A stretch of DNA of 64,000 nt from Pseudomonadota bacterium (GTDB taxonomy: Bacteria > Bdellovibrionota_F > JAHFAK01 > JBDREC01): positions 1 to 64,000 of the forward strand of contig JBDREC010000099.1 in the NCBI GenBank assembly GCA_043820105.1. The letters run 5' to 3'. Below are positions 21,946-53,108 of this stretch, piece after piece; position 1 is the first letter of the stretch; each line of letters starts with the position of its first letter. The translations under genes were made by a program, and so were the position numbers. Below the pieces are notes generated by a model, which did no database searches, was not told the origin of the DNA, and saw only the letters and a program-made list of their open reading frames with translations.

Positions 21946-22189
21946 GCCTGATTTTAGAAAAGGAAATCGTATCTTCATTTCAAAAAAAGACGGCTCAAAA
22001 TTCCCTGCGGAATTTTGGCCTTGATCTCACCGCGCTATTTTCTAAGTATAAGTAAAATGAAATTAATGAATTACATTCACTTATATATAGTAATTTCATT
22101 TAACTTCTACTAGGAAAAACCGGCTAGCGCGGCTCTGATACACTTTTTTTGAAATGAAGATACGATTTCCTTTTCTAATAAAATCAGGC
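21946..22189 (-). mobile_element. ~244-bp long hairpin (REPIN/MITE-like) element, family A copy 1
   Basis: About 44-bp terminal inverted arms with a 3-nt bulge and nested inner stems; homologous in reverse complement to 52872-53108; lies between convergent genes. Confidence 0.75.
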
Positions 22190-22243
22190 CAATATTTACA
22201 TGTAAATAAGGATAAATAATAAATATGCAAATGACGTGCACTT

Positions 22244-23761
22244 TTATTCGATGAGTTCGAATTCGGCTTCTTGGACTTCTGCTTTGCTTGAGAAAAAGAC
22301 TCTGTGTGGTGGGATAACAGTGCTAGCCACGAATTCAAAATAATATTTTGGGGCATAGGCTTTTAAGGTATCTAGATCTCCGACATAGTATGGATATTCA
22401 TCTGTGTGACCGCGTTTGATTCTTTCAAGAGCTCTAAACTCATATGGCATTATTTTTTCTAAGTTGCCTGCTTGATAATTTTCAAGTATTTTCTCTGGTT
22501 CATAATATGCGTATGCCCCTTTTTTATCTGCATATGCTTGTTCAGCTGCATCAACATATTCATTAAAAAATTTAATTTCAGGGTAGTGTAGGTAAAGTAA
22601 AGAGTAGCCTGTTTTAATCATCTCTAAATTTATATCTACATTATCGGCAAATACATAGCCTAATATTCTTCCGTATCTGTCACGTGATTCTGCTATTGTG
22701 TTATATGGTAATACGATTGTTACTTCGTTAACACCATTTAGCATTGAAGCTAATAATTCAGCTCCTTTTTCCGCGATTATACCTTGACTCATTCCCCAGA
22801 ACTTTGTTTCTTGAGTGTCAGTGTTAGCAAGTCTTATGCTTTCTTTTAAACCAGGGTTGCCATGAACAACAATTTCAACTGAATCCCCATCGATAACTCT
22901 TAATAGGTCAGCAGTAAAATATCCCTCAGTACACAATCTTGGAGAAAAAGTGAATTTTGATTTTTTTATATCATCAAGACTATAAAAGAAAACTCTATAT
23001 TCTGGAGGAATTTCCTGTCTTGAATAATTAATATATTCTTCTTTTGGATATGCCATTCCTGTTCTTAAATCGCCAACAAAATAACACCAGTTTTTTTTTC
23101 CACCATATTTTGTGAATCTTCTAAATTCATAAGGATAGATTTCAAGAGGCTCAATCTCATTCCAAATTCCAAGCCCATATTCTTTTGCAATTTTAGCAGC
23201 TTCTGAAAATTCTCTTACATGACGCCATTCTTCTGGAGCTCCTGGATTTAAAACAAAAGGAGTAGCCCACCCAAGTTTAACCATTAATACATTAATATTA
23301 AGGTCTGTATCTTGTGTAATTATTCCCTGGTCTCTTAAGTTCTGTTCTTGATCTGGGTCTGCTAAATAAATATAGGCAAGAATTCTTTTATAAAAACCTC
23401 TTGAACCTTCAGGATCTTCTCCTTTTAATTCTAAGATTATATTTGTTCCAAGGGGAATAAGTTTTTTCAGTTCTTGAGTTGCTTCATATGCATATGGTTG
23501 AGGTTCAACCTCTTTTCCGTTGCCTTCTTCATCACGATTTGGAATATAGTGAAGTTCAGGAGTGTCCATTCCTACCATTCTAATATCTTCCACATATTCC
23601 TTGCCTTCAAAATCAAATCGTACAGTGATAGTATCACCATCATCAATGTTGATTACTTTTGCCTCAATATATGCCTGGGAAAATAAATTAGAAATGCTGA
23701 CTAATACAAAGAGGCTAACTAAAATTATGGATCTAACTTGCTTAAAATAGTTCATATCCAC
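22244..23761 (-). CDS. Secreted nuclease with two tandem thermonuclease (SNase) domains
   Basis: Signal peptide; domain 1 IDDGDT...IRMVGMDTPE...RILAYIY...INVLMVKLGWA; domain 2 VIDGDS...IRLANTDTQE...DRYGRILGYV...INLEMIKTG. Confidence 0.88.
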   Translation of the reverse strand: MDMNYFKQVRSIILVSLFVLVSISNLFSQAYIEAKVINIDDGDTITVRFDFEGKEYVEDIRMVGMDTPELHYIPNRDEEGNGKEVEPQPYAYEATQELKKLIPLGTNIILELKGEDPEGSRGFYKRILAYIYLADPDQEQNLRDQGIITQDTDLNINVLMVKLGWATPFVLNPGAPEEWRHVREFSEAAKIAKEYGLGIWNEIEPLEIYPYEFRRFTKYGGKKNWCYFVGDLRTGMAYPKEEYINYSRQEIPPEYRVFFYSLDDIKKSKFTFSPRLCTEGYFTADLLRVIDGDSVEIVVHGNPGLKESIRLANTDTQETKFWGMSQGIIAEKGAELLASMLNGVNEVTIVLPYNTIAESRDRYGRILGYVFADNVDINLEMIKTGYSLLYLHYPEIKFFNEYVDAAEQAYADKKGAYAYYEPEKILENYQAGNLEKIMPYEFRALERIKRGHTDEYPYYVGDLDTLKAYAPKYYFEFVASTVIPPHRVFFSSKAEVQEAEFELIE

Positions 23762-23800
23762 CCCAGTAACGCTAATTGTTTAATTGTAATAGATCAAAAT

Positions 23801-23815
23801 GCAAAAAAGAGGCCA
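23801..23815 (-). promoter_or_regulatory. sigma54 -24/-12 promoter of the nuclease gene
   Basis: Minus strand TGGCCTCTTTTTTGC (GG-N10-GC). Confidence 0.6.
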
Positions 23816-23978
23816 TAGTAAATTTGAAAAGCTGATTTTTTGATATGTGTCGTTATTTTAGTAGCTTACACCATTGTTTTAGCAATGCAGATTCTAAATT
23901 TAATCAAAATATCAGTGGCAAAAAGGTACTGCTTAAAAATCATGACACTAGGTTTTGCCATTATTTGAATTTTCCTCC

Positions 23979-24020
23979 TACTGAATACCAAATACTAAAT
24001 ACTAAATACTAAATACCCAA
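23979..24020. repeat. Heptamer array (TACTAAA)n
   Basis: tactgaa taccaaa tactaaa tactaaa tactaaa tacccaa. Confidence 0.8.
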
Positions 24021-24097
24021 AACCCCACCTTTATCTTGACTTAATTAGGAAAATAAAAATATTATGTATTATTCTATCAACCTTTGGATTTATTCTT

Positions 24098-24694
24098 ATG
24101 ATTGCATATCTCAGAGGGTCTATTTTAGAAAAAAAAGAAAATTCTATTATTCTTGATGTTGGAGGCGTAGGTTATGAGGTTTTTGTGCCTAGGCTTAGCA
24201 TGTTTAATTTGCCTAATATTGGTGAAGAGGTTTGTTTAAGGATTTATACTGTTGTCAGAGAAGATGCCTTATTATTGTATGGTTTTTTAAGCAATACTGA
24301 AAAAGATGCTTTTATCATGCTTTTAAAAGTTTCAAAAATTGGTCCAAAGGTTGCGTTATCAATTTTATCAAATATTTCTAGCCAAGATTTAGTAAATGCG
24401 CTAATTTCAGAAGATGTAACGAGGCTTTCAATGGTTCAGGGAGTTGGTAAAAAAACTGCTGAAAGAATAATTGTCGAATTAAAAGGAAAAATATCCACTT
24501 ATTTAGAACAAATGCCTCATCAAATCAGCAAAGAAAAAGAAGCAAATTCTCATTTAAATGATGCTATTGCTGCATTAACAACCCTTGGATATAGACGTTC
24601 AGAAGTTGATAAAATTTTAAGTGAAATTGATATAAGTATGGCCACAACCACAGAAGATATTATTAAAAGCGCACTAAGAAAGACTGCAAAATGA
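24098..24694 (+). CDS. ruvA: Holliday junction branch migration protein RuvA
   Basis: [54 protein letters not shown]. Confidence 0.97.
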
Positions 24695-25728
24695 CGGAAT
24701 TTTTAAATAAAAGTAATAATTCTAAGGATGAAGAATGTTATTTTACAAATCTTAGACCTGAATCTTTAGATGATTATATTGGTCAGGAAAAAGTAAAAAA
24801 GAATCTTGAAGTTTTTATTGAAGCTGCAAAACAAAGAGGAGAGGTTCTTGATCATGTTTTATTTTATGGCCCACCAGGACTTGGTAAAACTTCTTTATCC
24901 TATATTATTGCAAAAGAATTAAATGTAAATATTAAGACAACTTCAGGGCCTGTTATTGAAAGGCAAGGAGATCTGGCGGCTATTTTAACAAATTTATCAG
25001 ACAAGGATATTTTGTTTATTGATGAAATTCATAGACTCAGCAATGTAGTGGAAGAGATTTTATATCCAGCAATGGAGGATTTTAAACTAGATATTATTAT
25101 TGGTCAGGGACCGAGCGCCAGAAGTGTTAAGATTGACCTGCCTAATTTTACTTTAGTTGGTGCAACCACAAGGGCTGGTCTTTTAACCTCTCCCTTAAGA
25201 GATAGGTTTGGAATGATTTTTCATCTTGATTTATATAAGCAAGAAGAGCTAGCTTTAATTGTTAAAAGATCTTCAAAGATACTGAAAATAGATATTACAG
25301 AAGACGGTGCATTAGAGCTTGCAAAAAGAAGTAGGGGGACTCCAAGGATTGTAAACAGGCTCTTAAAAAGAGTTAGAGATTTTGCTCAAGTTAAGGGAGA
25401 TGGTTTGGTAACAAAGGAAATTGCTGATCAATCTTTGACCTTAATGGAAATTGATAACTATGGCCTTGATAAGATGGACAGAAAAATACTATCAAATATC
25501 ATTGAAAAATTTTCAGGTGGTCCAGTTGGAATTGAAACCATTTCAGCCAGTATTAATGAGGACAGAGGTACTATTGAAGATGTTTATGAGCCTTTTTTAA
25601 TTCAAGAGGGTTTTTTAGATAAAACAATGCGTGGTAGGATTGTAACTGAGAAATCATATCGGCATTTTGGTTTTTCAAAGGAAAAACTAGCAGAAAATAA
25701 ACAACTTCAGAGCACCTTATTTGATTAA
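24691..25728 (+). CDS. ruvB: Holliday junction DNA helicase RuvB
   Basis: [46 protein letters not shown]. Confidence 0.98.
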
Positions 25729-25743
25729 GCAATTTTAAAGTGA

Positions 25744-25824
25744 TTATAGCAAGATTGGTAATGCAAAAATAATAATGAATGAAATTGCCGCCACAAAGGC
25801 TAAAAATAATTGTTTAGGCATCAT
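25744..25824 (-). CDS. Unannotated small single-TM peptide MMPKQLFLAFVAAISFIIIFALPILL
   Basis: 26-codon ORF preceded by GGGGGG and by a TTGCAT-17-TACAAT promoter. Confidence 0.5.
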   Translation of the reverse strand: MMPKQLFLAFVAAISFIIIFALPILL

Positions 25825-25887
25825 CCCCCCGGTTTATAAATTAGATAATTTTTTGATGAAGCTTCGTAGGTGAGTAGCACTTTGTTT

Positions 25888-25916
25888 ATTGTACTACACT
25901 TTTTGAGAGAATGCAA
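25888..25916 (-). promoter_or_regulatory. sigma70-type promoter TTGCAT-N17-TACAAT
   Basis: -35 at 25916-25911, -10 at 25893-25888; points at the 26-codon ORF. Confidence 0.55.
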
Positions 25917-25929
25917 ATTTTTTTAGTTG

Positions 25930-27951
25930 CTAGCTGCTAGTGGGTGTGAATAGGTTTTCAAGTAGATCATCATCAGCGATGCTGGGAATTGTTATTTTAA
26001 GGTTCTTGTTTTCTTGCATTGCTCGCTTAGCTGCAAAAATTGCACCTTTATTTCTTGCCCAGCTTCTTCTTGAGATTCCGTTGTTTACGTCCCAGAATAG
26101 CATTGATTCTAGCCTTCTTTGTGCATCATCTGAGCCGTCAAGGACCATTCCAAAGCCACCATTGATAACTTCACCCCAACCAACTCCACCTCCATTGTGA
26201 ATGGAAACCCAGGTTGCTCCTCTAAAGGAATCGCCAATTACATTCTGTATGGCCATATCAGCTGTGAAAGAAGAGCCATCATAAATGTTTGATGTTTCAC
26301 GGAACGGGGAATCTGTACCAGAGACATCGTGATGATCTCTTCCGAGGACGATCGGTTCTGAAATCTTTCCTTCTTTTAGCGCTTTATTAAACGCCGAAGC
26401 AATTTTGATCCTTCCATTGCTATCTGCATATAAGATTCTTGCCTGGCTTCCAACAACCAGATTGTTTTCTTTTGCTTCTTTAATCCATTTCAGGTTATCA
26501 AGGATCTGTTGCTTGGTTTCATTTGGTGCTTGGACTGCAAGTTCCTGCATCACCTCAATTGCAATTTTATCTGTTTTATCAAGATCTTGCGGGTCGTTTG
26601 AGGTGCATACCCATCTGAATGGTCCAAAGCCAAAGTCAAAACACATTGGACCCATGATATCCTGAACATATGATGGATATTTAAAGGATCCAACATTATT
26701 TAGGATATCAGCTCCTGCTCTACTTGCTTCAAGTAAAAAGGCGTTTCCGTAATCAAAAAAATACATACCTTTTTTAGCAAGATTATTAATAGCATTCACA
26801 TGTCGCCTTAGACTTTCGTATACCCTTTCTTTAAATAAAATCGGCTCCTTAGCCATCATTATTTTTGATTCTTCAAAACTTAAAGAAGCAGGATAATAGC
26901 CTCCTGCAAATGGGTTGTGAAGTGATGTTTGATCTGATCCCATGTCCACATTAATATTTTCTTGGTCTAATTTTTCCCACAAATCAACAATATTGCCTTG
27001 ATATGCCAAGGATACGGCTTCCTTTTGAGCTTGAGCTTTTTGGATTCTTTCAACTAATTTATCTAGGTTTGAATATACTTCATCAACCCATCCCTGCGAA
27101 TGTCTTTTTTCAACAACTAAGGGATTTATTTCAGCGATAACTCCAATTGTTCCAGAAATAACAGCAGCCTTTGCTTGTGCTCCAGACATGCCGCCAAGTC
27201 CAGAGGACACAAAAAGTTTGCCAGCTATACCTTCATTTTCTTTTTGAATTAATCTTCCTGCATTTAGAATTGTAATTGTTGTTCCATGGACAATTCCCTG
27301 GGGACCGATATACATAAAGGACCCAGCTGTCATTTGGCCATATTGAGAAACTCCTAAAGCGTTAAATTTTTCATAGTGGTCTTGTGAAGAATAATTTGGG
27401 ATTACCATTCCATTGGTGACCACAACTCTTGGGGCATCTTTATGAGATGGGTATAAACCCATCGGGTGACCAGAGTATAAAACTAAAGTTTGTTCATCTG
27501 TCATTTCTGCTAAATATTTCATGGTTAATAAATATTGAGCCCAGTTTTGAAAAACGGCTCCATTTCCGCCATAGGTAATTAGTTCATAGGGGTGCTGGGC
27601 AACGGTTTCATCTAGATTATTTGAAAGCATGAGCATAATAGCTGCTGCTTGCTTTGAATTTGCTGGGAAAGCATTAATTGAGCGAGCTGTTATTTTATAC
27701 TCGGGCCTGAATCTATACATATAAATTATGCCATAATTTTCTAGTTCTTCTTTGAATTCTTGAGCTAGTTCTGCGTGGTGCTTTTTATCAAAATATCTAA
27801 GGGCATTTTTTATAGCTAATTTTTTTTCATTTGTTGAAAGAAGGTCTTTTCTCTTGGGCGCGTGGTTTATTTTTTCATTCCATTTTTTTTGAGCAGGTAA
27901 GTTTTCAGGAATGCCTTGGAGTATTTGTTTTTGGAAGTCGTTAATAGTCAT
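25930..27951 (-). CDS. hutU: Urocanate hydratase, long form
   Basis: AQHPYELITYGGNG, QYGQMTAGS, GPQGIVHGT, GLGGMSGAQ, SDQTSLHN, GRDHHDVSG, HNGGGVGWG. Confidence 0.97.
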   Translation of the reverse strand: MTINDFQKQILQGIPENLPAQKKWNEKINHAPKRKDLLSTNEKKLAIKNALRYFDKKHHAELAQEFKEELENYGIIYMYRFRPEYKITARSINAFPANSKQAAAIMLMLSNNLDETVAQHPYELITYGGNGAVFQNWAQYLLTMKYLAEMTDEQTLVLYSGHPMGLYPSHKDAPRVVVTNGMVIPNYSSQDHYEKFNALGVSQYGQMTAGSFMYIGPQGIVHGTTITILNAGRLIQKENEGIAGKLFVSSGLGGMSGAQAKAAVISGTIGVIAEINPLVVEKRHSQGWVDEVYSNLDKLVERIQKAQAQKEAVSLAYQGNIVDLWEKLDQENINVDMGSDQTSLHNPFAGGYYPASLSFEESKIMMAKEPILFKERVYESLRRHVNAINNLAKKGMYFFDYGNAFLLEASRAGADILNNVGSFKYPSYVQDIMGPMCFDFGFGPFRWVCTSNDPQDLDKTDKIAIEVMQELAVQAPNETKQQILDNLKWIKEAKENNLVVGSQARILYADSNGRIKIASAFNKALKEGKISEPIVLGRDHHDVSGTDSPFRETSNIYDGSSFTADMAIQNVIGDSFRGATWVSIHNGGGVGWGEVINGGFGMVLDGSDDAQRRLESMLFWDVNNGISRRSWARNKGAIFAAKRAMQENKNLKITIPSIADDDLLENLFTPTSS

Positions 27952-27969
27952 ATTAAACCTCAGCTATCT

Positions 27970-28007
27970 TAAAGATTATGATTAAGATTCGGATTATGAT
28001 TAAGATT
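27970..28007. repeat. Hexamer array (TTAAGA/TTATGA)n
   Basis: taaaga ttatga ttaaga ttcgga ttatga ttaaga tt. Confidence 0.6.
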
Positions 28008-28059
28008 TATAGAAATGGATGTAAAGAAATTTATATATATTAAAATTAAAAAATTCTAT

Positions 28060-29898
28060 TTAGGGCGTTGTAAATATTGAGCTGAATTCTGTAGGGAGAT
28101 AATTTCCATCTAAATCAGCAACATCAGTAGTAACTGTTATTATATAGCTTGCCCTTGCATCTAAGGACGTTGATGGAAGAAAAGAAAAAGTTTTTCCATT
28201 AATTTGAGTAAGCTCTACATCAACGGGAATTTGAGAGCCCCTTTTTCTAAGAATGAAACTGGAATCGATATTTCCAGATTCATAGAAAAAACTATCAGCA
28301 TCAATTGGGATATTAAACTGTATTACAATTTTACTTTCAAGAGAATCTATGGGATCACCATGAATTGGGTTTGTCATAGCAATAGATAGAGCATCATCGA
28401 CTTCTTCTTCTGGTTCTGTTACTCTTTCTGCTCGTTCCTCCCTAGGCGGAAGATCTTCTTCTGCGTCATCAATTTCTGTCTCTTCCTCCACTTCTTCCTC
28501 ATCATCTATTGCCATATCATCTCTTGCATCCTCAACTTCTATGGTTGTTGAAAATCTTATGATTTCAGCAGTATCCATTGGGTTTCCGGCTGTATCTCTT
28601 ACCATTCTAAGGACAAGGATTTGATAAGAGGCATCTGATTCTAGTTCATTAATAGGGCTTATTGTTAGTGAATTTTCAGATTCAGAATAGCTAAGCTCTA
28701 TTTCAATTGATTCAACCTCAGCTCCTTCAATTTCAGGTGTTTTATTTAACAGGATTGTAGTAGTATCAATTGTATCAGCTTGCATTGCTTCAGAAAAATA
28801 AAGAACTGGTCTGATATTAATTGATACACTTTCGGCCCCGTCTTCAATACTGGAAGATTCAATATAAGGCGCTGTAACATCTCTTGCTTCTCTATATTGA
28901 CTTGCAACTCTAATAACTGCTGGTGTGGTTGCTTCACCGACTGCTGCTTCCATGCTTATAATAACGTTTCTATATGATAGAGGAATTTCATATTGGACAT
29001 TACAGCAGGACAAACCAGAACCGCAAGTTTCAGCTTCTTCAAATGAATCACCATCATAGTATCTTTTTATTATTTCTTCGGAGCTTGTTAGATCTTGTCT
29101 ATCTGCTACAATATTTACTGATAAGGCTTCTGTGTCATAGCAGAGAGTATAGATATCTTCTAGGCAGGTTCCGGCCGCTGTACATTCTTCCAAGAGCTCA
29201 GCAAAGACAAAATTGATTGCATTATTTAGAGTAATTATCCATTTGCTATTTTCCGTATCATAGGAAATGTCTATTTCTTCATCATCACTAATAACAGCTG
29301 GCGCTTGTTCAATTGAAACACTTGCTTCTATCTCTGCTGTAGCTCCTGAAAACTCCAGGGTAGCTCCAACTTTATTGTCTATTGATATTGTGATAGAAAG
29401 ACTAAATGGGTTTTCTAATATTTGAACGTATTCGCTTGCTTCTGTGATTAGCTCTTGTCCCCCTGTTCCGGTATTATATGCAAATAACTGTGCTGTAAAA
29501 GTATAATTTCCATATGCAAGTTCACTATCAAATTCAACACTTACTTGTGAAGAGGAATCTGACCCTGTAAATTCTTCACTTTCACCAGAGGTACTTTCTC
29601 CTGTGTCAGAAAGTGCCTCCATTATTAATTGATATGAGGTTTCTTGGTCCAGTGTATAAGAAACAAGGACAGTTGCTTTTGCGTAGTTTCCAGCTGTAAT
29701 GCTGACATTATTTAGACCATCAGTTGATTCAAGGCCTGGCTCGTCTTCTCCCCAGCCATCACCCCCTTTATTGAAAGTGTTTCCACAACTTCTACCACCA
29801 ACAACACCAAATGAAAAAAGTAAAACTGTCATTATAGCGATAATTCCTAGATAGGCTTTGAAATGTTTTTTGATTAGTTGTAATTTAGACTCACTCAC
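28060..29898 (-). CDS. Acidic surface protein with two Ig-like (Big_5/SbsA-type) domains
   Basis: N-terminal TM/lipoprotein-like anchor; DVTAPYIESS..DGA..V.IN....YFSEAM...VRDTAGNPM and a second similar C-terminal domain (VADLDGNYL...F.T). Confidence 0.7.
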   Translation of the reverse strand: MSESKLQLIKKHFKAYLGIIAIMTVLLFSFGVVGGRSCGNTFNKGGDGWGEDEPGLESTDGLNNVSITAGNYAKATVLVSYTLDQETSYQLIMEALSDTGESTSGESEEFTGSDSSSQVSVEFDSELAYGNYTFTAQLFAYNTGTGGQELITEASEYVQILENPFSLSITISIDNKVGATLEFSGATAEIEASVSIEQAPAVISDDEEIDISYDTENSKWIITLNNAINFVFAELLEECTAAGTCLEDIYTLCYDTEALSVNIVADRQDLTSSEEIIKRYYDGDSFEEAETCGSGLSCCNVQYEIPLSYRNVIISMEAAVGEATTPAVIRVASQYREARDVTAPYIESSSIEDGAESVSINIRPVLYFSEAMQADTIDTTTILLNKTPEIEGAEVESIEIELSYSESENSLTISPINELESDASYQILVLRMVRDTAGNPMDTAEIIRFSTTIEVEDARDDMAIDDEEEVEEETEIDDAEEDLPPREERAERVTEPEEEVDDALSIAMTNPIHGDPIDSLESKIVIQFNIPIDADSFFYESGNIDSSFILRKRGSQIPVDVELTQINGKTFSFLPSTSLDARASYIITVTTDVADLDGNYLPTEFSSIFTTP

Positions 29899-44434: not shown

Positions 44435-44481
44435 TTTTTACCTCCGAATTGGTCAAATTTAATTTTCATTATACTATTAAT

Positions 44482-44625: not shown

Positions 44626-45552
44626 TTATTCGTTATCCAGGTAATCGTTAAATTCTAGAACTTGAGCTTCAAAAAACTCATAACTTGTATATTTAGAGCC
44701 ATCATAGATAACAATGTCATAATCATTGACATCTGCAAGAAAATCATCTGTGCTTTCATAGTCTTGTAAAACTTGGTCATAAAGACCATGATCACTTAAG
44801 CCTGTTGTGTTTATGTGTAGCAGATCAGCTAATAGCTCCCTTCCACTTAAATAATCACCATTATTATAGAAAGTCCCACAAGATAAAACTGAGCAGGCTG
44901 CAAACTCAAGCTCATTTGTAAGGTCTTTAAAGCAATCATCATTGTCATAATTTGGAATTAAGCTGTAATATCTGCAAAGATCACTGTAGGTTGTTGGTCC
45001 ATCGCCCTGATTATATGAGCAAAACTCTTCTAGCTGATTTTCAAGGTAAGTTTTTAAAAAGTCTCTTGAACCATCACCCATTAATACATACCTATAATCA
45101 AAACTTTTGGTGTGCAATTCATCAAAAAAGTCAGCTTCATTTTTAAACTTTGTGTAAGTTAAATCATAAAGCCCTGCATCGGTATAGTTTTCTTGGTTGC
45201 AGCCTGTTATTTGACCAATAGTTTCTCTGCCGGAATAATAATCATTGTCTACTTCAACTGTGCGAAGTGCAATTAATGAACAGGTTAGAAAAGTAACTTC
45301 ATCAGTAGCGGCTTTAAAGCAATAGTCATTATTGTAATTTGGAGCAAGAGTGTGTTCTCGTCCGCTTGGATATTCATAGGAAGTGCAGCAAAAATAGTCA
45401 TTATCAAGAGAACAGTTGTCACTGTCACAAGTTCCATCAACTGTTGATGGGTTTGCGGTGCTTCCCGAGGTATCATAATCATCAGCACAAGATAAAAACA
45501 GGAAAAATACTGGGATCAGTAAAATAATTAAAATAGGATAAAATTTTTGCAT
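44626..45552 (-). CDS. Acidic Cys-rich lipoprotein, two copies of the same domain
   Basis: Lipobox FLSC; GGAG RBS; internal duplication with a period of about 129 aa. Confidence 0.75.
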   Translation of the reverse strand: MQKFYPILIILLIPVFFLFLSCADDYDTSGSTANPSTVDGTCDSDNCSLDNDYFCCTSYEYPSGREHTLAPNYNNDYCFKAATDEVTFLTCSLIALRTVEVDNDYYSGRETIGQITGCNQENYTDAGLYDLTYTKFKNEADFFDELHTKSFDYRYVLMGDGSRDFLKTYLENQLEEFCSYNQGDGPTTYSDLCRYYSLIPNYDNDDCFKDLTNELEFAACSVLSCGTFYNNGDYLSGRELLADLLHINTTGLSDHGLYDQVLQDYESTDDFLADVNDYDIVIYDGSKYTSYEFFEAQVLEFNDYLDNE

Positions 45553-45664
45553 AAATTCTCCAATATAAAATTGCGCAATTGCTAAGTAAATTCAGTGCAT
45601 TAGCACAAAGCATCAAAGATAACATGTTTATATAACAGATAAAAATAGCAATTGCAAGAAAAAA

Positions 45665-46693
45665 CTAAGCCATTTGTTTTCCCGCCAGTTGGCCACATGC
45701 AGCTTTTATATCCTCTCCCCTTTTCTTTCTGATAATTGTGTTAATATTTTTATTTATTAGAATTTGATGGAATTGATTAATTCTATCTGTGCCTGGAGAA
45801 GAAAATTCTATGTTTTCTGAATCATTTAAGGGTATTAGGTTTAGTTTGTATTTAAGACCACTTAGTATTTTTGCAAGCATTTGAGCATCTTTATCTGAAT
45901 CATTAATATCTTTTAATAATATATATTCAAAAGTAATTCTTTTCCTGTTTTTTAGAGGGTAGTCTTTTAATGTCTCGAGTAAGGTTTTGAGGTTGTATTT
46001 TTTATTTATAGGCATGATATTTGATCTGATTTCGTCATTTGGAGCATTTAATGAGACAGCTAAGTTTACATCTGTTTTATTACCAAATTCTATTATTTTA
46101 TCAGTTATACCAGCCGTTGAAACTGTAATTTTTCTATGTGAAAATGAAAGTCCAAAATCAGAAGTTAGTATTTCTATGGCTTTAATGACATTTTCTAAAT
46201 TTAACAGGGGCTCTCCCATGCCCATGAAAACAATATTTGATACAGGGTTGATTGATTCCTTTTTGCATTGCTTGACTTGATCCACAATTTCCCAGGTTTC
46301 AAGGTTCCTTATAAATCCAAGCTTTGCTGTCATGCAAAATTTACAATTTAGGGCGCACCCTACTTGAGTTGAGATGCAGATTGTGCAGCGCTTTGCTTCA
46401 GGAATTATAACAGATTCAATAAAGTGATTATCATCTAATTTAAATGAAAGTTTTTGAGTTTTATCTTTTGAAATTTGCTTTTGATCTTTTTTCAATTGCC
46501 TTATTTCAGAAATTTCAAAAAGCTTTAATCTTAACTGTTTTGAAAGATCCGTCATTTCTTCAAAATTATTAACAAGTTTATTGTTTATCCATTGGAATAG
46601 TTGCCTGCCAGTAAAAGGCTTGTAGCCAAGCTTGGCCACAAAGTCTTCCATTTTCTTTAATGTAAGATTTGCTAAGTTAAATTTATCTTTCAT
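45665..46693 (-). CDS. rlmN: Dual-specificity RNA methyltransferase RlmN
   Basis: CISTQVGCALNCKFC, VFMGMGEPL, LAVSLNAP, EYILL..IND, DIKAACGQL. Confidence 0.97.
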   Translation of the reverse strand: MKDKFNLANLTLKKMEDFVAKLGYKPFTGRQLFQWINNKLVNNFEEMTDLSKQLRLKLFEISEIRQLKKDQKQISKDKTQKLSFKLDDNHFIESVIIPEAKRCTICISTQVGCALNCKFCMTAKLGFIRNLETWEIVDQVKQCKKESINPVSNIVFMGMGEPLLNLENVIKAIEILTSDFGLSFSHRKITVSTAGITDKIIEFGNKTDVNLAVSLNAPNDEIRSNIMPINKKYNLKTLLETLKDYPLKNRKRITFEYILLKDINDSDKDAQMLAKILSGLKYKLNLIPLNDSENIEFSSPGTDRINQFHQILINKNINTIIRKKRGEDIKAACGQLAGKQMA

Positions 46694-46775
46694 GATTATG
46701 TTTCTATAGTCTTTGATTAATCTACTTGCAAGTAGTTTTTCTTGGGAAATGTATGAATTTATTTTCTTCTTCTTA

Positions 46776-46872
46776 AATTAATTATTAATTATTGATTATT
46801 GATTATTGATTATTGGTTATTTTTACGATTGTAGGAGAATAATTAATAATCAATAATTAATAATTAACAATT
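46776..46872. repeat. Two inverted heptamer arrays, (TTATTRA)n and (TYAATAA)n
   Basis: attattaatt attgattatt gattattgat tattgg ... aataattaataatcaataattaataattaacaatt. Confidence 0.7.
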
Positions 46873-47647
46873 AACGGAGAAGACCCAAACTCCACACTGT
46901 CCCGGCTGCATCCATTTTTAAATCTCTATAAGCTTCTTCACAAATAACATCATCATCATATTTTATTTCACCAAATCCGCCGCGTTCCCATGTTTCATCA
47001 CCATTTTCATTTATTTTTCTATTAAACATTGTTGTTGAAATTATTTCATAGCTTAGACCTGTTGAAACTGAAGCCCAGAAAGCAAGGGTCTTGGGAAGTG
47101 GAAAACCTAAGGATTTATTCTGCTGTATTTCAAAAGCTAAAAATGCATGCATGTAAAAATGATTCCAGTCTGAGCCTAAGTAGTGTGGAATGCATTCTGG
47201 AAATAGGGCACTTATTTTTTCCAAATCATTATCACTTTGCATTGGTAGGACATTGTAAAAAACTTGATAAAGCAATGATCTAAAAGTTTTTAGATTGCCA
47301 ACAGGTTTTTCAAGTCTAAGTTCTTCTAAGACCTTTTCACAATCAGCAAATACGCCAAGGATTAAAATTCTATCTTCTGTTTTTTGAAAATAATTTTTTG
47401 ATAATTCATAAAGTGAAACAAAAATTTCATTTTCTTGTAATTTTAATATGAAGTTAAAATAGTTATTTGACCTTACTTGGAAATCTTCGTTTTGTACAAT
47501 TTTTTCAAAAATATAACCCGCCACAGAGGATTTTAATTCGCTTCTTTTATCTTCCTGGGCTGATAAATTGGTTGAGAAAAAAATGGGGAATTGAATAAAG
47601 GCAAGAGTAATTACCAAGATGATTTTTTTCAAAAATTTTGTTTTCAT
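46871..47647 (-). CDS. Secreted hypothetical protein
   Basis: Signal peptide; C-terminal DWNHF...YE...DLKMDAAG reminiscent of H-E-D (VanZ/YfiM-like) motifs. Confidence 0.6.
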   Translation of the reverse strand: MKTKFLKKIILVITLAFIQFPIFFSTNLSAQEDKRSELKSSVAGYIFEKIVQNEDFQVRSNNYFNFILKLQENEIFVSLYELSKNYFQKTEDRILILGVFADCEKVLEELRLEKPVGNLKTFRSLLYQVFYNVLPMQSDNDLEKISALFPECIPHYLGSDWNHFYMHAFLAFEIQQNKSLGFPLPKTLAFWASVSTGLSYEIISTTMFNRKINENGDETWERGGFGEIKYDDDVICEEAYRDLKMDAAGTVWSLGLLR

Positions 47648-47720
47648 TATCTTGCCTTTCCCAATTCCCCAAAAACGAGGTGTAAATATAAATTATAAAT
47701 GTATAGAATGTGCTAATTTT

Positions 47721-48851
47721 TTATTCTATTTCAATGGTATCTGCTGAGACTACATTTTCTTTGCAGATTCTGTAAAGGTCCATGGCTCTTACAGCTAGTA
47801 CCATTCCTGGGTAAAATTCTGATCTTCCTCTTGCTTTGTCATTAACAAGTTCAAAAGTATAGTCTCCTTTGACTTGTTTTTCAGTAATAACTCTTTCGCC
47901 ATTAGTGACATCCAGGAGTTGCACTGTAATTTTTTCTGTGGTGTCGTCTTTATCATAGGCATTGATTTGGATGCTAACGGTTTCAACGGTTCTAGGTTGA
48001 GTTTTTTCAATCCAATTTGGCCAGCCTTTTCCTTTTGTTTCAACATACGGTGCTACTTTTGAGCCTGTTATAACAGTAAGTGTAGGTGGTTCAAAGCATG
48101 TTGGTAGTTTTTTGCTTTCTACGATTACTGTTTTTGGTGCAACTTCTTGGCCATAAACATTTACTTCAAAGCTTGTTGTTTTAAAGGAATATGTTTCATC
48201 AAGATAACATGGTTCAAAGTTACCATCTCTTGCAATGTTTTCATCACATAAAACTTCACGACCATGTCTTTCCTTAACTGTATATCTTAATCCATAACCG
48301 CTTGTTTCAGTTCCACCTATAATAACAGTATTTCGACCATCTTCTGTTAGAGAATGTTTTGACCACACTTCAACGCGTAACTCTTTTACTGGCTCAGGTT
48401 CAGGAGCTGGAGTTACAGGTTCATCTTGAGCTTTTGGTGCATTTGTGACAATTACCATGATAACAGGATCATTCCAAACAACACTTATGACGTCTTGTGA
48501 AAATTCTTTTCTATATCTATCAATTTCCCAGCCTGTATATGGATCCATAATAACCAGATCAATTGCTCTTGCATCTTTAACTACTTCCTTTTGTATTTGA
48601 AAGGAACCTATTTTTCCATCTGCTGTAGCATCCCACTGGGTTCTTCCTTTTCTTGATTGATATATATAGGAGCCACCTGATTTGGAATAAACCTCAAAAC
48701 TGTATAGAGCATTTGATTCAAGTCCAGAGGCTTTAAATATAAAAAAACCCTGGCTATTGGTTTCTACAGTTACACTCGCTGCATAAACTAAGCTTGATAA
48801 AATAAGAATTAAAAAGGTTGTAATAGCAATTATTAATTTAGATCTTGGCAT
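47721..48851 (-). CDS. Secreted beta-rich hypothetical protein
   Basis: Signal peptide (LVYA), GGGAG RBS, Pro-rich linker between beta-rich modules. Confidence 0.7.
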   Translation of the reverse strand: MPRSKLIIAITTFLILILSSLVYAASVTVETNSQGFFIFKASGLESNALYSFEVYSKSGGSYIYQSRKGRTQWDATADGKIGSFQIQKEVVKDARAIDLVIMDPYTGWEIDRYRKEFSQDVISVVWNDPVIMVIVTNAPKAQDEPVTPAPEPEPVKELRVEVWSKHSLTEDGRNTVIIGGTETSGYGLRYTVKERHGREVLCDENIARDGNFEPCYLDETYSFKTTSFEVNVYGQEVAPKTVIVESKKLPTCFEPPTLTVITGSKVAPYVETKGKGWPNWIEKTQPRTVETVSIQINAYDKDDTTEKITVQLLDVTNGERVITEKQVKGDYTFELVNDKARGRSEFYPGMVLAVRAMDLYRICKENVVSADTIEIE

Positions 48852-48895
48852 TTTAATCTCCCAAAGGTTTTGTTAATCTTGAATGTATGTATTTC

Positions 48896-48910
48896 GCAAC
48901 AAGTGTGCCA
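48896..48910 (-). promoter_or_regulatory. sigma54 -24/-12 promoter, perfect consensus
   Basis: Minus strand TGGCACACTTGTTGC. Confidence 0.85.
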
Positions 48911-49117
48911 AGAGTCTTTGGATTGATTGATTTAATAATATCACTAATGTTATCAATAGCATAAGCCTATAATAAGGGCATAAATTTTATGGATTAGTAT
49001 TCATAAACAGTGCTTTTTTGTCACCCTTTGGACATTTTGCATCTTGAGACTTAACTTGAATTTTTTTTTATTTATTTTTATATTGATCTTGATATAAAAG
49101 TTATTGAAAGAATTTCA

Positions 49118-50581
49118 ATGGATGCAAAAAGAAAAAGATTGTATTTGATCGGTGGAGGCTTGCTTCTATTGATTGTCATAGCTAATAATTCTTCAAAGGA
49201 AGATAAAGCATCAGATGAAGTTTCCAATATTCCCAAAGAAGAAACTTATGAATTAAATTTAAAAATTCCAGAAGCTGTAGATCAAGGGTATGATGATGAA
49301 TATTATGAAGATGAAAACACAGATAAAGATACAATAGTATCTCCAAGGTTACAAAAATGTAATGACTTATGGTCATATGCCTGTAATATTGAAGATGAAG
49401 ATCTCCTTGATGATCATTCTGGATTTTACAATTCAAAAACTGGCTTTTCAAATGTTGGTATTGTTAAGAAACAAACCATGGCAGTTTCAAAATTTATAGA
49501 TAATTTTTGGAATTTGTATTCTGAATTTCAAGTTGAAGGGAAGGAATGTAAGACTTTAGTTGATAAATTTAAAGCACGATTTGAGGAGATGGATGTAGAT
49601 AATTGTAAAACTGACAAAAAAAAGTGTATGGGTGATAAAAATTGTGAGCTAAGTGTTCACTATTATTGTTATTATCTGGCTGAAAGGGCTTATATTAGAG
49701 GTTTTGATAAAGTTCCTGATTGGGAAGTTTATGAATACAATGCTCTAAAGGCTTGTCGTAAACAAGTTTACCTCTCCATTTATGATAAATATTATAGATA
49801 TAAAGAAAATGAAGTTTCAAGACTTTATAAAAAAGCTATGCGATACGCAATAACTGTTATTGAGAGGGAATTGCCAGGAAGCAGTGCAGATTTCAGGTCT
49901 TTAATTCTTAGCACTGATTTATTATTAGGAGATATTTTAGATCATCCGGATTTTTATGGAGCAAATGAAGGTCTTATGTTTGATCGGATTATTTTCAGAA
50001 TGGATAACGCTTATTTTGCTGAATCGCACAGATATAATTATGTTTCTATAGGCCTATCTGTCATTAATCGATTTTGGAGCAAAATGGCTATTCTATATAT
50101 TTTAGGACATGAGATGGGGCATAATTTTGATCCAATGGTTCATGCAATTGATTTATGCGGTTTTGGAAATAAGAGTAAAAAACAAGCAGATGATAATAAA
50201 AGAATGGAAGGAAAGTATTATCCAAATCCCATAACCTGTGCCTCTGTACCTTCTGAACTTAAAGCTAAATCTAAAGAACTCATTAAGGTTATTGATCTAG
50301 CTTCTTACGCTAAGGTGAAAAAAGGGGAAACACACAATTATTCTTATCTTGGCGAGCTATTTGCTGACTGGTTTGGAATTATGATTTTGAATGAGTATTT
50401 CAAAGATAATTCTGTTTCTCTTGAAGATAGAAGAAGAGCTATGTTGAATATTTCACGTCTTATATGTGATAATGATGCTAAAAAAGAGGGTGATGTTCAC
50501 CCAAAATGGCAAGATCGAGTCAATAAGCTGATGAGAAAGTATCTTGAAAGACCTGATGAGCTTTATATGTGCATTAAATAG
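49118..50581 (+). CDS. Membrane-anchored HExxH zinc metalloprotease-like protein
   Basis: N-terminal TM, Cys-rich region, NAY, ILGHEMGHNFD, GELFADWFG, HP...R. Confidence 0.7.
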   Translation: MDAKRKRLYLIGGGLLLLIVIANNSSKEDKASDEVSNIPKEETYELNLKIPEAVDQGYDDEYYEDENTDKDTIVSPRLQKCNDLWSYACNIEDEDLLDDHSGFYNSKTGFSNVGIVKKQTMAVSKFIDNFWNLYSEFQVEGKECKTLVDKFKARFEEMDVDNCKTDKKKCMGDKNCELSVHYYCYYLAERAYIRGFDKVPDWEVYEYNALKACRKQVYLSIYDKYYRYKENEVSRLYKKAMRYAITVIERELPGSSADFRSLILSTDLLLGDILDHPDFYGANEGLMFDRIIFRMDNAYFAESHRYNYVSIGLSVINRFWSKMAILYILGHEMGHNFDPMVHAIDLCGFGNKSKKQADDNKRMEGKYYPNPITCASVPSELKAKSKELIKVIDLASYAKVKKGETHNYSYLGELFADWFGIMILNEYFKDNSVSLEDRRRAMLNISRLICDNDAKKEGDVHPKWQDRVNKLMRKYLERPDELYMCIK

Positions 50582-50719
50582 TTGCTGGTTGCAGCTTGTT
50601 AGTTGCTTAGTAAGTTGGTTTTTTTCCATTTGCGATCAAGTGTATATGCATGTTTTAACCTTGCATCTTAAAAATATTTACTTTATATGATTTCCTGGTT
50701 TACTAACTAATGGTGGCTT

Positions 50720-51400
50720 ATGAAGGGCAAAATATTAATCATTGAAGATGATAAAGACCTTAACAATCTATTGCAATATAATCTTAAAAGAGAAGGATTT
50801 GAAGTAGATTCGTTTTATTCTGGTAAGGGAGCAATTGAAAGAGTGCATGAATTTAATCCTGATTTAATTGTTCTTGATATTATGCTTCCAAAAACTTCAG
50901 GCTTTAAAATTTGTAAGCAGCTTCGTGAAAAGCCTGATACTGAGAACATACCTGTTATTATGCTTACTGCAAAGTCCGAAGAAGATGATCGGGTTAAGGG
51001 TTTTGAGCTAGGTGCTGATGATTATGTTACAAAGCCTTTTAGTCCCATTGAACTTATGCTGAGAATTAAAGCTGTTTTAAAAAGAACGTCATCATATAAA
51101 GAAGAAAAAACAAAGTTTAGGATTGGTAAATTAGTTGTTGATGAAGAAAGAACAGAAGTGAAAGTTGGTGCTGAGGTTATTCAGTTAACTTTAACAGAAT
51201 TTAAGCTTTTATTATTTTTAATCAAAAACAAGGAAAAAGTTTTTTCAAGAGAAGATCTTTTAACTTCTGTTTGGGGTTATTCTGACATTACAGAAACAAG
51301 AACAGTTGACACTCATATTAAAAGACTGAGGCAGAAGCTCTTTGATTCTGGAGATTATATTAAAACTATGCATGGTCTGGGGTATAAGTTTAGTGTTTAA
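50720..51400 (+). CDS. phoB: OmpR/PhoB-family response regulator
   Basis: ILIIEDD, PDLIVLDIMLP, MLTAKSEE.DRV.G, GADDYVTKPFS, TRTVDTHIKRLR. Confidence 0.8.
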   Translation: MKGKILIIEDDKDLNNLLQYNLKREGFEVDSFYSGKGAIERVHEFNPDLIVLDIMLPKTSGFKICKQLREKPDTENIPVIMLTAKSEEDDRVKGFELGADDYVTKPFSPIELMLRIKAVLKRTSSYKEEKTKFRIGKLVVDEERTEVKVGAEVIQLTLTEFKLLLFLIKNKEKVFSREDLLTSVWGYSDITETRTVDTHIKRLRQKLFDSGDYIKTMHGLGYKFSV

Positions 51401-52523
51401 CTCCATTCTCTTGACCCTTGTTTCTCTTCTTTTAATTTCAACAAGTATATTTGTCTATTTTCATCTTCAAAATAAAAGAAAAATGTCTCGTTATAGGCGA
51501 GAACGAAATCTCTTAAATGCCATTTTAAAAGGTATGTACGAAGGTGTTATTGTTATTAATTCTGAAGGACATGTTGTTTTAGCAAATGATTCTATGAAAA
51601 AGATTTTTCCAATTCCTTTGGAATATAAAAACAAACATTTGCTTGAAGTTATTAACAATTCTCAAATATACCAGTTGTTTGATGAAATAAGGGATGGTGC
51701 TGAATTTGTTTCAAAAGAAGTCAAGGTTAATGAGGAAGAGGATTTTTCCTTATATGCAAATCTATCAGCAATTTCTCAAGATAAAAAAATTGATGCAGTC
51801 GTTGGTGTTTTTCATAATATCAGCAAAATTCGAAAATTAGAGAAAATGAGAAGATATCTAATTGCAAACTTGAGTCATGAGTTCAAAACACCCCTTGCTT
51901 CTATAAAGGGATACTCTGAGACTTTATTAAGTGGTGCTTTAGATGATAAAGAAACAGCAAGGCAATTTATTAAAATAATAGAAAAAAACTGTAATTTTCT
52001 AATTAAACTAATTGAAGAGATGCTACAACTATCAAAGCTAGATACAGGCCAATATAAAGTCGAATATAGTGACATAGTGTTTCCATCTTTTGTACATGAG
52101 GTTATAGAAGGTATTGAACAAACAAATTTTAAAAATGTTACAGTAATTAATGAAATTGAAAATGTAGCAGTTCCAGGTGATGTGCAGGGAATGAAACAAG
52201 TTTTTTCAAATTTAATAACAAATGCCTACAAATATAATAAGCAAGATGGTGCCTTGCGTATCTATTCTGAAAAGGAAACTACTGCCGAAGGTCGCTATAT
52301 TACATTTATCTTTGAAGACACAGGACTTGGAATACCAGCAGAAGATGTGAATCGTGTTTTTGAACGCTTCTATCGCGTTGAAAAAGCAAGATCACGCGAT
52401 ATGGGCGGAACAGGATTAGGCCTATCCATTGTCAAAAACATTGTCAAAGCCCACAAAGGAAAAGTCTGGGTCGAAAGCATCGAAGGCCAAGGCTCAAAAT
52501 TTTTCCTAAGATTGCCGCTTTAA
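51393..52523 (+). CDS. phoR: PhoR-like sensor kinase (TM, PAS, HisKA, HATPase)
   Basis: ANLSHEFKTPLASIKGYSETL, NAYKY, EDTGLGIP, RVFERFYRV.K.RSR..GGTGLGLSIVK; likely GTG start overlapping phoB. Confidence 0.82.
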   Translation: MFNSILLTLVSLLLISTSIFVYFHLQNKRKMSRYRRERNLLNAILKGMYEGVIVINSEGHVVLANDSMKKIFPIPLEYKNKHLLEVINNSQIYQLFDEIRDGAEFVSKEVKVNEEEDFSLYANLSAISQDKKIDAVVGVFHNISKIRKLEKMRRYLIANLSHEFKTPLASIKGYSETLLSGALDDKETARQFIKIIEKNCNFLIKLIEEMLQLSKLDTGQYKVEYSDIVFPSFVHEVIEGIEQTNFKNVTVINEIENVAVPGDVQGMKQVFSNLITNAYKYNKQDGALRIYSEKETTAEGRYITFIFEDTGLGIPAEDVNRVFERFYRVEKARSRDMGGTGLGLSIVKNIVKAHKGKVWVESIEGQGSKFFLRLPL

Positions 52524-52540
52524 TCAGCACTTCTCACATT

Positions 52541-52762
52541 TATTTTTTATGAAAATCTTAGGGAAGTTATTTTAAAAAGGGCATGCGCCCCAGTCGGCCC
52601 ACTCAGTCGGAAAAAGCTATTATTTTCTAATTTATAAAAGCTTCATTCTTACGCTTTTAAAAATAAGAAAATAATAACTTTTTCCTCCTTCGTTGGGCCT
52701 CCTTCCTGGCTTTTAATGCCCTTTTTAAAATAACTTCCCTAAGATTTTCTATATAAAAAATA
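52541..52762. mobile_element. ~220-bp long hairpin (REPIN-like) element, family B
   Basis: 34-bp perfect inverted arms (GAAAATCTTAGGGAAGTTATTTTAAAAAGGGCAT) plus a 10-bp outer stem beyond a 3-nt bulge; nested inner stems. Confidence 0.75.
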
Positions 52763-52871
52763 CTCATTTGGACATATCTTACAACATGACAGTGTTGAAA
52801 ATCATTAATGTGATGAAACCTTATCGGTTATCGGTTTGGGTTACGATCCCCGCCTTCAATTCCGCACATTC

Positions 52872-53108
52872 CCTGATTTTATTAGAAAAGCAAGAAGAGT
52901 TTAACTCAAAAAAAGTGTATCGGAGCCAGACCAGCATGGTTTTTCCTGGCAGAAGTTAAATGAACCTAGTTTATATAATTGAGTGTAATTATTTAATTTC
53001 ATTTTACTTATGCTTGGAAAATGGGCTGGCGAGATCAAGGGCAAAATCTCGCAGGGATTTTGACTCGTCTTTTTTTGAGTTAAACTCTTCTTGCTTTTCA
53101 AAATCAGG
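52872..53108 (+). mobile_element. ~237-bp long hairpin element, family A copy 2
   Basis: Aligns end to end with the reverse complement of 21946-22189; its own arms are perfectly complementary. Confidence 0.75.

Follow-up and report, generated by a model that had tools for sequence, protein, structure and literature searches.

A dispersed family of intergenic hairpin repeats with covarying stems in a Bdellovibrionota_F genome

We analysed a stretch of 64,000 nucleotides (the window) and found two copies of one ~240-nt element, E1, which is probably a module of a lineage-specific, non-coding palindromic intergenic repeat family of the REP/REPIN/MITE kind. This is a new repeat family of an already familiar kind, so that the novelty lies at the level of the family and no new principle is involved. 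Copy A (21946-22189, minus strand) and copy B (52872-53108, plus strand) can be aligned over their whole length, and the columns of the alignment, 10-15 nt of flank included, average 86% identity. Each folds as one long hairpin (-113.9 and -98.5 kcal/mol, z-scores -16.4 and -10.4 for A and B, respectively), and none of 200 shuffles folded as well. Three parts make up the fold: P1, the closing stem (41-47 bp); P2, a long arm; and P3, a side hairpin. P1 includes a variable segment X, which is paired with an exact reverse complement, X', in both copies (Table 1). Copy A is located between convergent ORFs encoding a KhpA-like protein (21590-21856, plus strand) and an SNase-domain protein (22244-23761, minus strand). 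Copy B is likewise located between convergent ORFs, which encode a histidine kinase (51342-52523, plus strand) and a cytidylyltransferase-like protein (53117-53602, minus strand).

An earlier note on this DNA had described the end-to-end alignment, the perfect complement X', covarying inner stems, a retained terminal bulge and side hairpin, and the non-coding position of both copies between convergent genes. All of these observations were confirmed here and below. The note had also placed the two ~240-nt copies correctly, but the element proved longer at both ends, with a conserved leader upstream and a conserved AAGTG(C/T)G tail downstream. Moreover, a second hairpin element, E2, lies upstream of copy B, starting 13 nt beyond the histidine-kinase stop codon, and the genome holds about 21 E1 loci.

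Table 1. Positions of E1, E2 and their parts in the window
Feature	Position	Strand	Remark
Copy A of E1 with leader remnant (22190-22223) and AAGTGCG tail (21939-21945)	21939..22223	-	leader and tail common to copies on other contigs
Copy A, P1 5' arm, 47 nt, ATT bulge	22143..22189	-	0 mismatches against 3' arm
Copy A, variable segment X (GGAAATCGTATCTTCATTTC)	22151..22170	-	
Copy A, long arm P2: basal helix, conserved RGA/GA internal loop, covarying helix, variable apex	22022..22142	-	
Copy A, side hairpin P3, then GTC and T7	21992..22020	-	helix 7: 3/12 pairs changed on both sides
Copy A, P1 3' arm, X' at 21962-21981	21946..21989	-	
Element E2, second ~230-bp hairpin, upstream of copy B	52537..52766	+	-100.4 kcal/mol; arms homologous to E1 arms
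E2-E1 spacer, leader type L2 (CTTCAATTCCGCACATTCC)	52767..52870	+	L2 also at C8
Copy B of E1	52872..53108	+	
Copy B, P1 5' arm, X (GCAAGAAGAGTTTAACTC) at 52890-52907	52872..52915	+	
Copy B, arm P2	52916..53037	+	
Copy B, side hairpin P3, then GTC and T7	53039..53066	+	inner part terminator-like in scan
Copy B, P1 3' arm, X' at 53077-53094	53069..53108	+	neighbouring ORF's stop codon 8 nt further on

The genome-wide collection of copies that the note had proposed, carried out with nhmmer and a covariance model, yielded 10 sense copies of full length, spread over 9 contigs, and about 11 that are incomplete (assembly of 3.8 Mb, 93% complete, 113 contigs). All 21 loci examined are intergenic, and none overlaps an ORF of at least 90 aa by more than 40 nt. 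No reading frame is common to the 10 copies; their longest open stretches measure 34-68 aa and differ in strand and frame. Rfam gave no match in the whole window at gathering thresholds; at permissive thresholds we obtained only sub-threshold long-hairpin models, such as plant microRNA hairpins (49 bits against a 211-bit threshold).

The fold is conserved among the copies. In a structure-fitted alignment of the 10 copies, 96.7% of 867 cells were paired and 23 of 88 pairs were changed on both sides. None of 500 shuffles reached this result, and slid alignments gave 38-55% paired cells with 2-5 double-changed pairs. A plain MAFFT alignment showed both-side changes at 21 of 90 pairs. Covariation was found in P1, P2 and P3, even for copies 95% alike; an inner stem reads GCCGCGCTA/TAGCGCGGT in one copy and GCCAGACCA/TGGGCTGGC in the other, and P3 behaves likewise. 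The three-way junction is tight, with 0, 1 and 2 linker nucleotides, and the RGA/GA internal loop is invariant (10/10 copies). The P1 arms are identical in 7 of the 10 copies, and 8-9 copies retain the 5'-arm bulge (3-4 nt) and the 1x1 mismatches of P2. Since E1 was seen in one genome only, this conservation rests on paralogues that are mutually related and recombining.

No part of E1 varies more than segment X, which has conserved blocks on either side; between copies, as many as roughly half of its positions differ, and its length varies by 2 nt. The note had treated it as a discrete swappable cassette, which did not hold up. Across the 10 copies its variants grade into one another (GTATC, GTGTC, GGGTC, ...). 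In copy C46 the two arms differ at two pairs, both of them G.U, and these are intermediate between C99a and C84b. Inner-X type and P2-apex type occur in all four possible combinations, which is why we attribute the mosaics to recombination between copies; P3 type and apex type are likewise combined in all four ways. Pairing survives this block exchange because the exchanged tracts nest round the hairpin axis. Within the closing stem no stretch changes faster than X, which is kept paired; in the preferred reading, its single-step changes are then matched on the other arm.

A double-hairpin composite of ~540-575 bp, with the order E2-spacer-E1 and E1 as its 3' module, is present at C28, C31 and in the window. 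E2 has copies at C81, C28 and C31, and halves of it occur in other places. E3 and E4, two further families that are built alike, likewise come as a tandem pair and were found at no fewer than 12 contig ends. The short forms of the composite are deletions between short direct repeats, inside which lie the junctions of the minis at C109, C28:25707-25838, C1 and C8. Many E1 copies are truncated or chimeric; in the chimeric copy C4, the body is that of E1 but the 5' arm is of the E2 type, and 12 closing-stem positions are unmatched.

The spreading unit is most likely this double hairpin as a whole, made of E2, a 60-105-nt spacer, E1 and a short tail. It would decay by three routes, namely deletion between short direct repeats adjoining the palindromes, recombination among the four homologous arms, and block exchange between copies. 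The fold (P1, P2, P3 and the tight junction) would be preserved through selection on a folded single strand, which may be ssDNA in mobilisation or RNA when co-transcribed with neighbouring genes. Template switching from one arm to the other during replication may contribute to this.

That the family is or was mobile is our inference, as are the identity of the folding strand or molecule and that of the mobilising enzyme. Counting against mobility are that no movement was seen (neither an insertion polymorphism nor an empty site at the E1 ends compared), that no partner enzyme was found, and that the element is known from one genome. The leading candidate for the mobiliser, by analogy with a sister genus described below, would be a Y1/RAYT-type transposase acting in trans. 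The genome has 13 Y1_Tnp matches, with several Y1 genes at contig ends. The note's reading of E1 as a non-autonomous, REPIN-like mobile element stands as the best one for a dispersed, non-coding, covarying hairpin, but the link to an HUH enzyme was not found. In this 93% complete assembly, none of the 11 Y1 loci with aligned flanks is flanked by E1/E2 arms and no arm match lies near a Y1 gene, so that the search for a RAYT or IS200/605 enzyme between the same ends came back empty for this genome. Four of the 12 Y1 loci scanned for flanking inverted repeats have their own, unrelated to E1/E2. A sister genus, which has its own hairpin-repeat families, shows the layout for one of them: in genome G002, a 217-aa Y1 (RAYT-like) gene carries the arms of that family on both flanks. 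A GTAG-type repeat, separate from E1, was seen beside the Y1 gene of C19.

REPIN palindromes have a conserved tetranucleotide tag, GTAG or CGTC, at their 5' side; this tag is absent from E1, whose arms start GCCTGATTTT or CATTTATTTT. Unlike REPINs, E1 is far larger (240 nt, 41-47-bp arms), has an ornate three-stem interior and a modest copy number (~21 loci), and lends its arms to no aligned Y1 locus of its genome (0/11). REPIN/RAYT elements resemble E1 in being dispersed, strictly extragenic, non-coding inverted-arm hairpins in which compensatory changes are common, and in forming higher-order tandems and decayed singlets with no target duplication (PMC3116915). Further points of likeness are the several Y1/RAYT-like genes encoded in the E1 genome and the sister-genus hairpin family flanking such a gene.

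The BIMEs of enterobacteria are modular mosaic repeats with interchangeable sub-blocks and composites. Modular, interchangeable sub-blocks and composite arrangements are also shared by E1 and the BOX elements of pneumococcus (PMC3049150). E1 and E2 differ from both BIME and BOX in being long hairpins with homologous arms, and in mosaic pieces that nest symmetrically about the hairpin axis. The CREE/NEMIS elements of Neisseria are, like E1, inverted-repeat elements between genes, but they are shorter, with defined terminal inverted repeats and a TA duplication. CREE are described as forming, when co-transcribed, hairpins bound or cleaved by RNase III, and as altering neighbour-gene expression (PMC2649163). 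The bcr1 repeat of the Bacillus cereus group (~155 bp) is intergenic like E1, and is described as transcribed, with a cruciform-like RNA fold preserved by compensatory changes, which is again a likeness (PMC3184786). bcr1 has 5-bp flanking direct repeats, whereas E1 shows none, and the sequences are dissimilar.

An IS-derived MITE would share with E1 terminal inverted repeats (41-47 nt) round a short core without a common ORF. Such an element would also have a target-site duplication and a full-length IS with the same termini. We found no duplication at the ends of E1 or the composite (flanks inspected by eye, without a statistic) and no full-length IS with E1 terminal repeats, all arm or terminus matches falling in short elements. 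On C74 and C107, CCTGATTTTATTAGATTTG at the contig ends looked like an IS terminus; we rejected it, as it lies inside duplicated coding sequence. For an IS200/IS605-derived (PATE-like) element, a TnpA/TnpB partner and a constant short left-end target would be expected; no TnpB domain was found in the genome, and the left flanks differ among copies (ATCGG, AGTCG, TCTCA, TGACG). A SINE-like retroelement would come with a reverse transcriptase and with copies truncated at the 5' end only, but the genome has no RVT_1 match, and fragments truncated at the 5' end and at the 3' end are both present.

E1 could instead represent structured non-coding RNA genes or modules, in which a three-way-junction RNA has a protein-binding internal loop and a long, perfect P1 duplex that would be processed (e.g. 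by RNase III), either as a multi-copy RNA family or as 3'-UTR stability or termination modules. We consider this unlikely. A functional RNA could also account for so strong and junction-precise a fold and for its conserved tandem-GA internal loop; the tight junction, the invariant loop and the covariation of all three stems, found even between copies 95% alike, point the same way. The strand shown was more stable in folding than its complement in 10 of 10 E1 copies, and G.U pairs exceeded A.C (20 cells at 13 pairs against 6 cells at 6 pairs, a mis-registered helix left out); this strand comparison is drawn from related copies and hence is no independent test, and in the partner module E2 the opposite strand was more stable (4/4 copies). 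At 12 of the 21 loci, a co-oriented ORF ends close to the element, with -3 to 20 nt between its stop codon and the start of the element. Downstream of P3 come GUC and a U7 run, and in several copies a small hairpin with a T-run lies directly past the 3' end; a terminator scan gave nothing in copy A and one weak site in copy B. On the other side, a simple scan detected no promoter-like site at E1 and Rfam holds no matching family, four loci lie in divergent promoter regions, and the many truncated or chimeric copies look like decaying repeats. Three of the eight tandem-gene loci are antisense as well, the other five being sense, and this mixed placement at tandem genes in itself neither supports nor excludes an RNA role of E1.

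The identity of the arms might also come from copying rather than selection, through template switching (quasipalindrome correction), arm-to-arm gene conversion, or arm regeneration in hairpin-based transposition. The note had proposed that one arm is copied from the other; we regard such an origin as improbable, and copying is not needed, or at least not obligatory. Identical arms in most copies despite the divergence of X, together with the scarcity of intermediates, would suit it. Template switching is documented to make imperfect inverted repeats perfect, or keep them so, in single events (PMC8794818; see also PMC7202029 and PMC5941160), and in one proposed REPIN model a 5' tail pairs with the 3' end at integration (PMC3116915). 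However, C4 retains its 12 unmatched positions, both differences in C46 are the classic stepwise intermediate, and neither the bulge nor the P2 mismatches have been erased in 8-9 of the 10 copies. P2 and P3 covary too, though they are not mutual arm copies of a simple palindrome, and template switching leaves the dispersal, the retained bulge and the internal loops unexplained.

More doubtful still is that E1-E4 make up a so far undescribed class, in a phylum that is barely sampled, of large hairpin elements with a three-way junction, which act as folded single strands. A dedicated protein would then recognise the conserved bulge and tandem-GA loop, pairing in each propagation cycle would regenerate or check the hypervariable, always self-paired X duplex, and the class would have structure-guided mobility or RNase III-type processing with no known enzyme partner. 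Finally, the note's idea of X as a variable guide or specificity segment for a nucleic-acid target is scarcely credible: its high variability between conserved blocks would fit, but X is always paired to X' within the same element, its variants are linked by mutational steps, as unrelated spacers would not be, nothing else in the 3.8-Mb assembly matched any of the 9 tested at up to 1 mismatch (scattered 2-3-mismatch matches only), and in viral contigs the 20-mer had 0 exact matches and the 18-mer 3, about chance by a rough estimate. As judged from these searches, X appears to be without detectable target information.

The preferred reading, a dispersed palindromic repeat, provides a well-resolved example from a lineage with four species genomes in the collection searched. 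The evolution of a hairpin is visible within one genome, with single-step compensated changes, G.U intermediates still present, and block exchange between copies that preserves pairing. The same genome displays the decay of hairpins by deletions between short direct repeats adjoining palindromes. It also calls for caution, as a 'cassette with perfect complement' can arise ordinarily from compensated change, block exchange and deletion. If an enzyme or RNA role were found, the three-stem architecture could reveal what is recognised in REPIN-like elements.

Outside its genome, E1 gave no match in an exact-pattern scan of genome contigs, nor did its core pattern in viral sequences; such scans demand exact matches and would miss diverged relatives. 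Another 13 loci from the metagenome pattern scan were rejected as chance matches, none of which fits the element HMM. Searches at the family, order and phylum level (1, 3 and 4 genomes) found E1 in this genome alone, the remaining matches being unrelated long hairpins. In three groundwater-metagenome DNA runs, only three short contigs (221-238 nt) matched without differences; they lie outside the elements, and E1/E2 are neither covered nor bridged. The SNase-domain protein was not found in the relatives' genomes with the query used, and the cytidylyltransferase-like gene is present in G001-G003 with different neighbours; therefore, there is no orthologous intergenic site to compare. The best matches of the cytidylyltransferase-like protein have at most 49% identity and are spread over many phyla.

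We searched the source assembly (G000; 3.8 Mb, 113 contigs, 32% G+C, 93% complete) with nhmmer and a covariance model, and found ten full-length sense copies of E1, the hairpin element of about 240 nt. One of the two copies on contig C84 is diverged. The same search found copies reduced to the 3' part on C19, C105, C30 and C108, and motif searches added fragments with one end only on C28, C109, C1, C8, C108, C104 and C39. The earlier note had described two stretches of the window and proposed a genome-wide collection of copies, and the family indeed extends beyond this pair. The two stretches align end to end as one element, as first noted.

None of the 21 loci examined overlaps an ORF of at least 90 aa by more than 40 nt. 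In 12 of them a co-oriented ORF precedes the element, which starts -3 to 20 nt from its stop codon. Judged by ORFs of at least 90 aa, 6 loci are convergent, 6 tandem-sense, 3 tandem-antisense and 4 divergent, and 2 lie at contig ends; counting the 88-aa KhpA ORF shifts copy A from tandem-sense to convergent (7 convergent, 5 tandem-sense). Both window copies fill gaps between convergent ORFs, as had been claimed, and given the mixed contexts the family as a whole follows no orientation rule. The ORFs inside the elements have no conserved frame or strand among copies and are best ignored in annotation.

Features of E1 and of related or neighbouring repeats (window positions unless a contig, C, is named)
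Feature	Location	Remarks
E1, full-length copies	2 in window; 1 each on C46, C31, C28, C5, C27, C4; 2 on C84	copy A 21946-22189 (-), copy B 52872-53108 (+)
P1, closing stem of E1		41-47 bp; contains X/X'
P2, arm of E1		long, imperfect
P3, side hairpin of E1		12-13 bp, then GUC and U7
ORFs inside E1, 51-86 aa	52901-53101 (-), 52960-53115 (+), 22096-22356 (-)	frame and strand unconserved among copies
E2 in window	52537-52766
E2-spacer-E1-AAGTG(C/T)G	C28:33779-34317; C31:23685-24224	also in window
Mini element	C28:25707-25838
ORF MEYVMRIVKC	C28:34006-34045; C28:25745-25785	in E2-E1 spacers
RAYT-like Y1 genes with own inverted repeats	C103:60994-61986 and C59:287-1279	AGGGGTCAGGCCTTGACATTCG
	C19:60557-61054	GTAG-type, TTGTAGTGGAGGGGCT
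	C20:951-1619	ATGTTAGACGTCCGACGTCTAACAT
Y1 gene with hairpin arms	G002 locus L188 (contig C12), about 820-1660
E3/E4 tandem pair	C28:44249-44738
E3/E4 at contig ends	ends of C1, C56, C57, C61, C90, C101, C103, C104, C106, C108, C109, C111	outside window
GG[A/T]TCATCTCCAATTTGAATACCTAAACAAT motif	C28:44201-44238; C81:55665-55696; C108:41449-41481	about 16 loci besides the first; C81 copy directly after an E2 copy
Inverted heptamer-like arrays	46778-46867	TTAATTATTAATTATTGATTATT; 23-bp stem, 44-nt loop

Each window copy folds into a single long structure with a tight three-way junction of P1, P2 and P3. The minimum free energy was -113.9 kcal/mol for copy A (z = -16.4) and -98.5 kcal/mol for copy B (z = -10.4), and in neither case was any of 200 shuffles as stable. 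The covariation of the stems reported earlier was confirmed in two alignments, both of paralogues with common ancestry and recombination: both sides had changed in 21 of 90 predicted pairs with MAFFT, and in 23 of 88 in the model-fitted alignment, which leans toward the structure and mis-registers the helix at columns 17-26. In the latter, 96.7% of 867 cells were paired; 0 of 500 shuffles matched these values, and sliding the partner by 1-3 columns gave 38-55% pairing and 2-5 pairs changed on both sides. The E1 fold is strongly under constraint. Furthermore, the strand as drawn was more stable than its complement in 10/10 copies, and carried 20 G.U cells in 13 pairs versus 6 A.C cells in 6 pairs; in E2, a second hairpin element, strand stability was reversed in 4/4 copies. 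This hints weakly at a strand-specific fold of E1, since the E1 copies are related to each other.

In the variable segment of P1, X' is the exact complement of X in both window copies, as the earlier note had it, and in seven of the ten copies the 5' and 3' arms are reverse complements of each other. The note had read X as a swappable cassette, with one arm perhaps copied from the other. The variants instead form a graded series (GGAAATCGTATC, GGAAATCGTGTC, GGAAATCGGGTC, GGAAGGGGTA, GGAAGCGGTA, with GCAAGAAGAG more distant), and the inner block attached to them is either TTCATTTC or TTTAACTC. A G.U pair is the textbook intermediate of stepwise pair change. At two positions of the C46 copy the 5' arm is in the G state and the 3' arm in the older state, giving two such pairs. 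The chimeric C4 copy retains 12 unmatched arm positions; mismatched arms are therefore not promptly corrected, and arm copying is at least not obligatory. All four combinations of inner-X type with apex type were seen, and likewise of P3 type with apex type, indicating that blocks were exchanged between copies. Where a conversion tract is contiguous and has the hairpin at its centre, both sides would be swapped together, so that pairing would survive the exchange. Template switching between arms, as discussed in PMC8794818, may add to the upkeep of pairing; retention of the 5'-arm bulge and of mismatches in P2 argues that it does not dominate. The apparent cassette is accounted for without a new mechanism. 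A role of X as a specificity segment found no support, as the nine variants had no match with at most one mismatch in the rest of the genome, and an exact search of viral contigs yielded no hit for the 20-mer and 3 for the 18-mer, by a rough estimate about as many as chance would give.

E2 is about 230 bp long and lies about 60-105 nt upstream of several E1 copies. The four arms (E2 5', E2 3', E1 5', E1 3') are variants of one motif of about 45 nt. The E1 loci that lack the complete order E2-spacer-E1-AAGTG(C/T)G are derivatives of this composite. The copies on C4 and C5 have an E1 body with an E2-type 5' terminus, a form that would be the expected outcome of recombination between two direct arms, and on C30 and C108 the 5' half of E2 is joined to the 3' part of E1. 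The mini elements (one on C109, one on C28) have their junctions in the short direct repeats ATGA[A/G]AAT and CC[T/C]GATTT, and the C1 junction lies within AAATC. Given the known instability of palindromes, these are probably scars of slippage across them. Two spacers share a 10-codon ORF with only two differences, both synonymous (AGA/CGA, TGT/TGC). Since it is absent from the other spacers, it is too thinly supported to be called a gene.

The earlier note had proposed a search for an enzyme gene (RAYT, IS200/605 TnpA) flanked by the same ends. We found 13 Y1_Tnp hits in G000, and no E1 or E2 arms near the Y1 genes of this 93%-complete assembly, several of which are located at ends of contigs; neither TnpB nor a reverse transcriptase was found there. 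Four Y1 loci have flanking inverted repeats of their own, including the GTAG-type at C19, unrelated to the E arms; more than one REP/RAYT-like system, each separate and several in all, thus appear to be present in the genome. No target duplication was seen at the flanks of E1 or the composite, and no constant left-flank word at the elements. The sister genus (G001, G002) has two hairpin families of its own, with sequences different from E1, at 5-10 loci per genome. One of them, a dispersed 114-nt perfect hairpin common to both genomes, flanks a 217-aa Y1 gene of G002 with its arms on both sides. This is the REPIN/RAYT layout outlined by Bertels and Rainey (PMC3116915). By analogy with the sister genus, we infer that the leading candidate mover of E1 would be a Y1 enzyme that acts in trans.

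E1 is a real feature, and the class of repeat to which it belongs is ordinary. No Rfam family matches it, and our searches found no copies beyond G000. The repeats most like it are REPINs, the bcr1 type, which is MITE-like and transcribed and has compensated stems (PMC3184786), Correia elements (PMC2649163) and mosaic BIME/BOX repeats (PMC3049150). As neither RAYT adjacency, nor target duplication, nor a partner IS was found for E1, we assign it to a new family of dispersed palindromic intergenic repeats, outside the named families.

E3 and E4 are two more families in G000 that are built in the same way, with 35-bp stems and interiors of about 135 nt. Their copies stand at at least 12 contig ends and are 93-98% identical; of the repeats, these were therefore probably active most recently, and they are probably a cause of assembly breaks. 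A motif of about 30 nt, GG[A/T]TCATCTCCAATTTGAATACCTAAACAAT, marks E3 on its left side, and does the same for another repeated sequence. About 180 nt downstream of one copy of the motif is a Y1 gene whose frame a single in-frame TAG splits into 143 aa followed by 84 aa. Inverted heptamer-like arrays such as the pair in the window are also found many times in G000.
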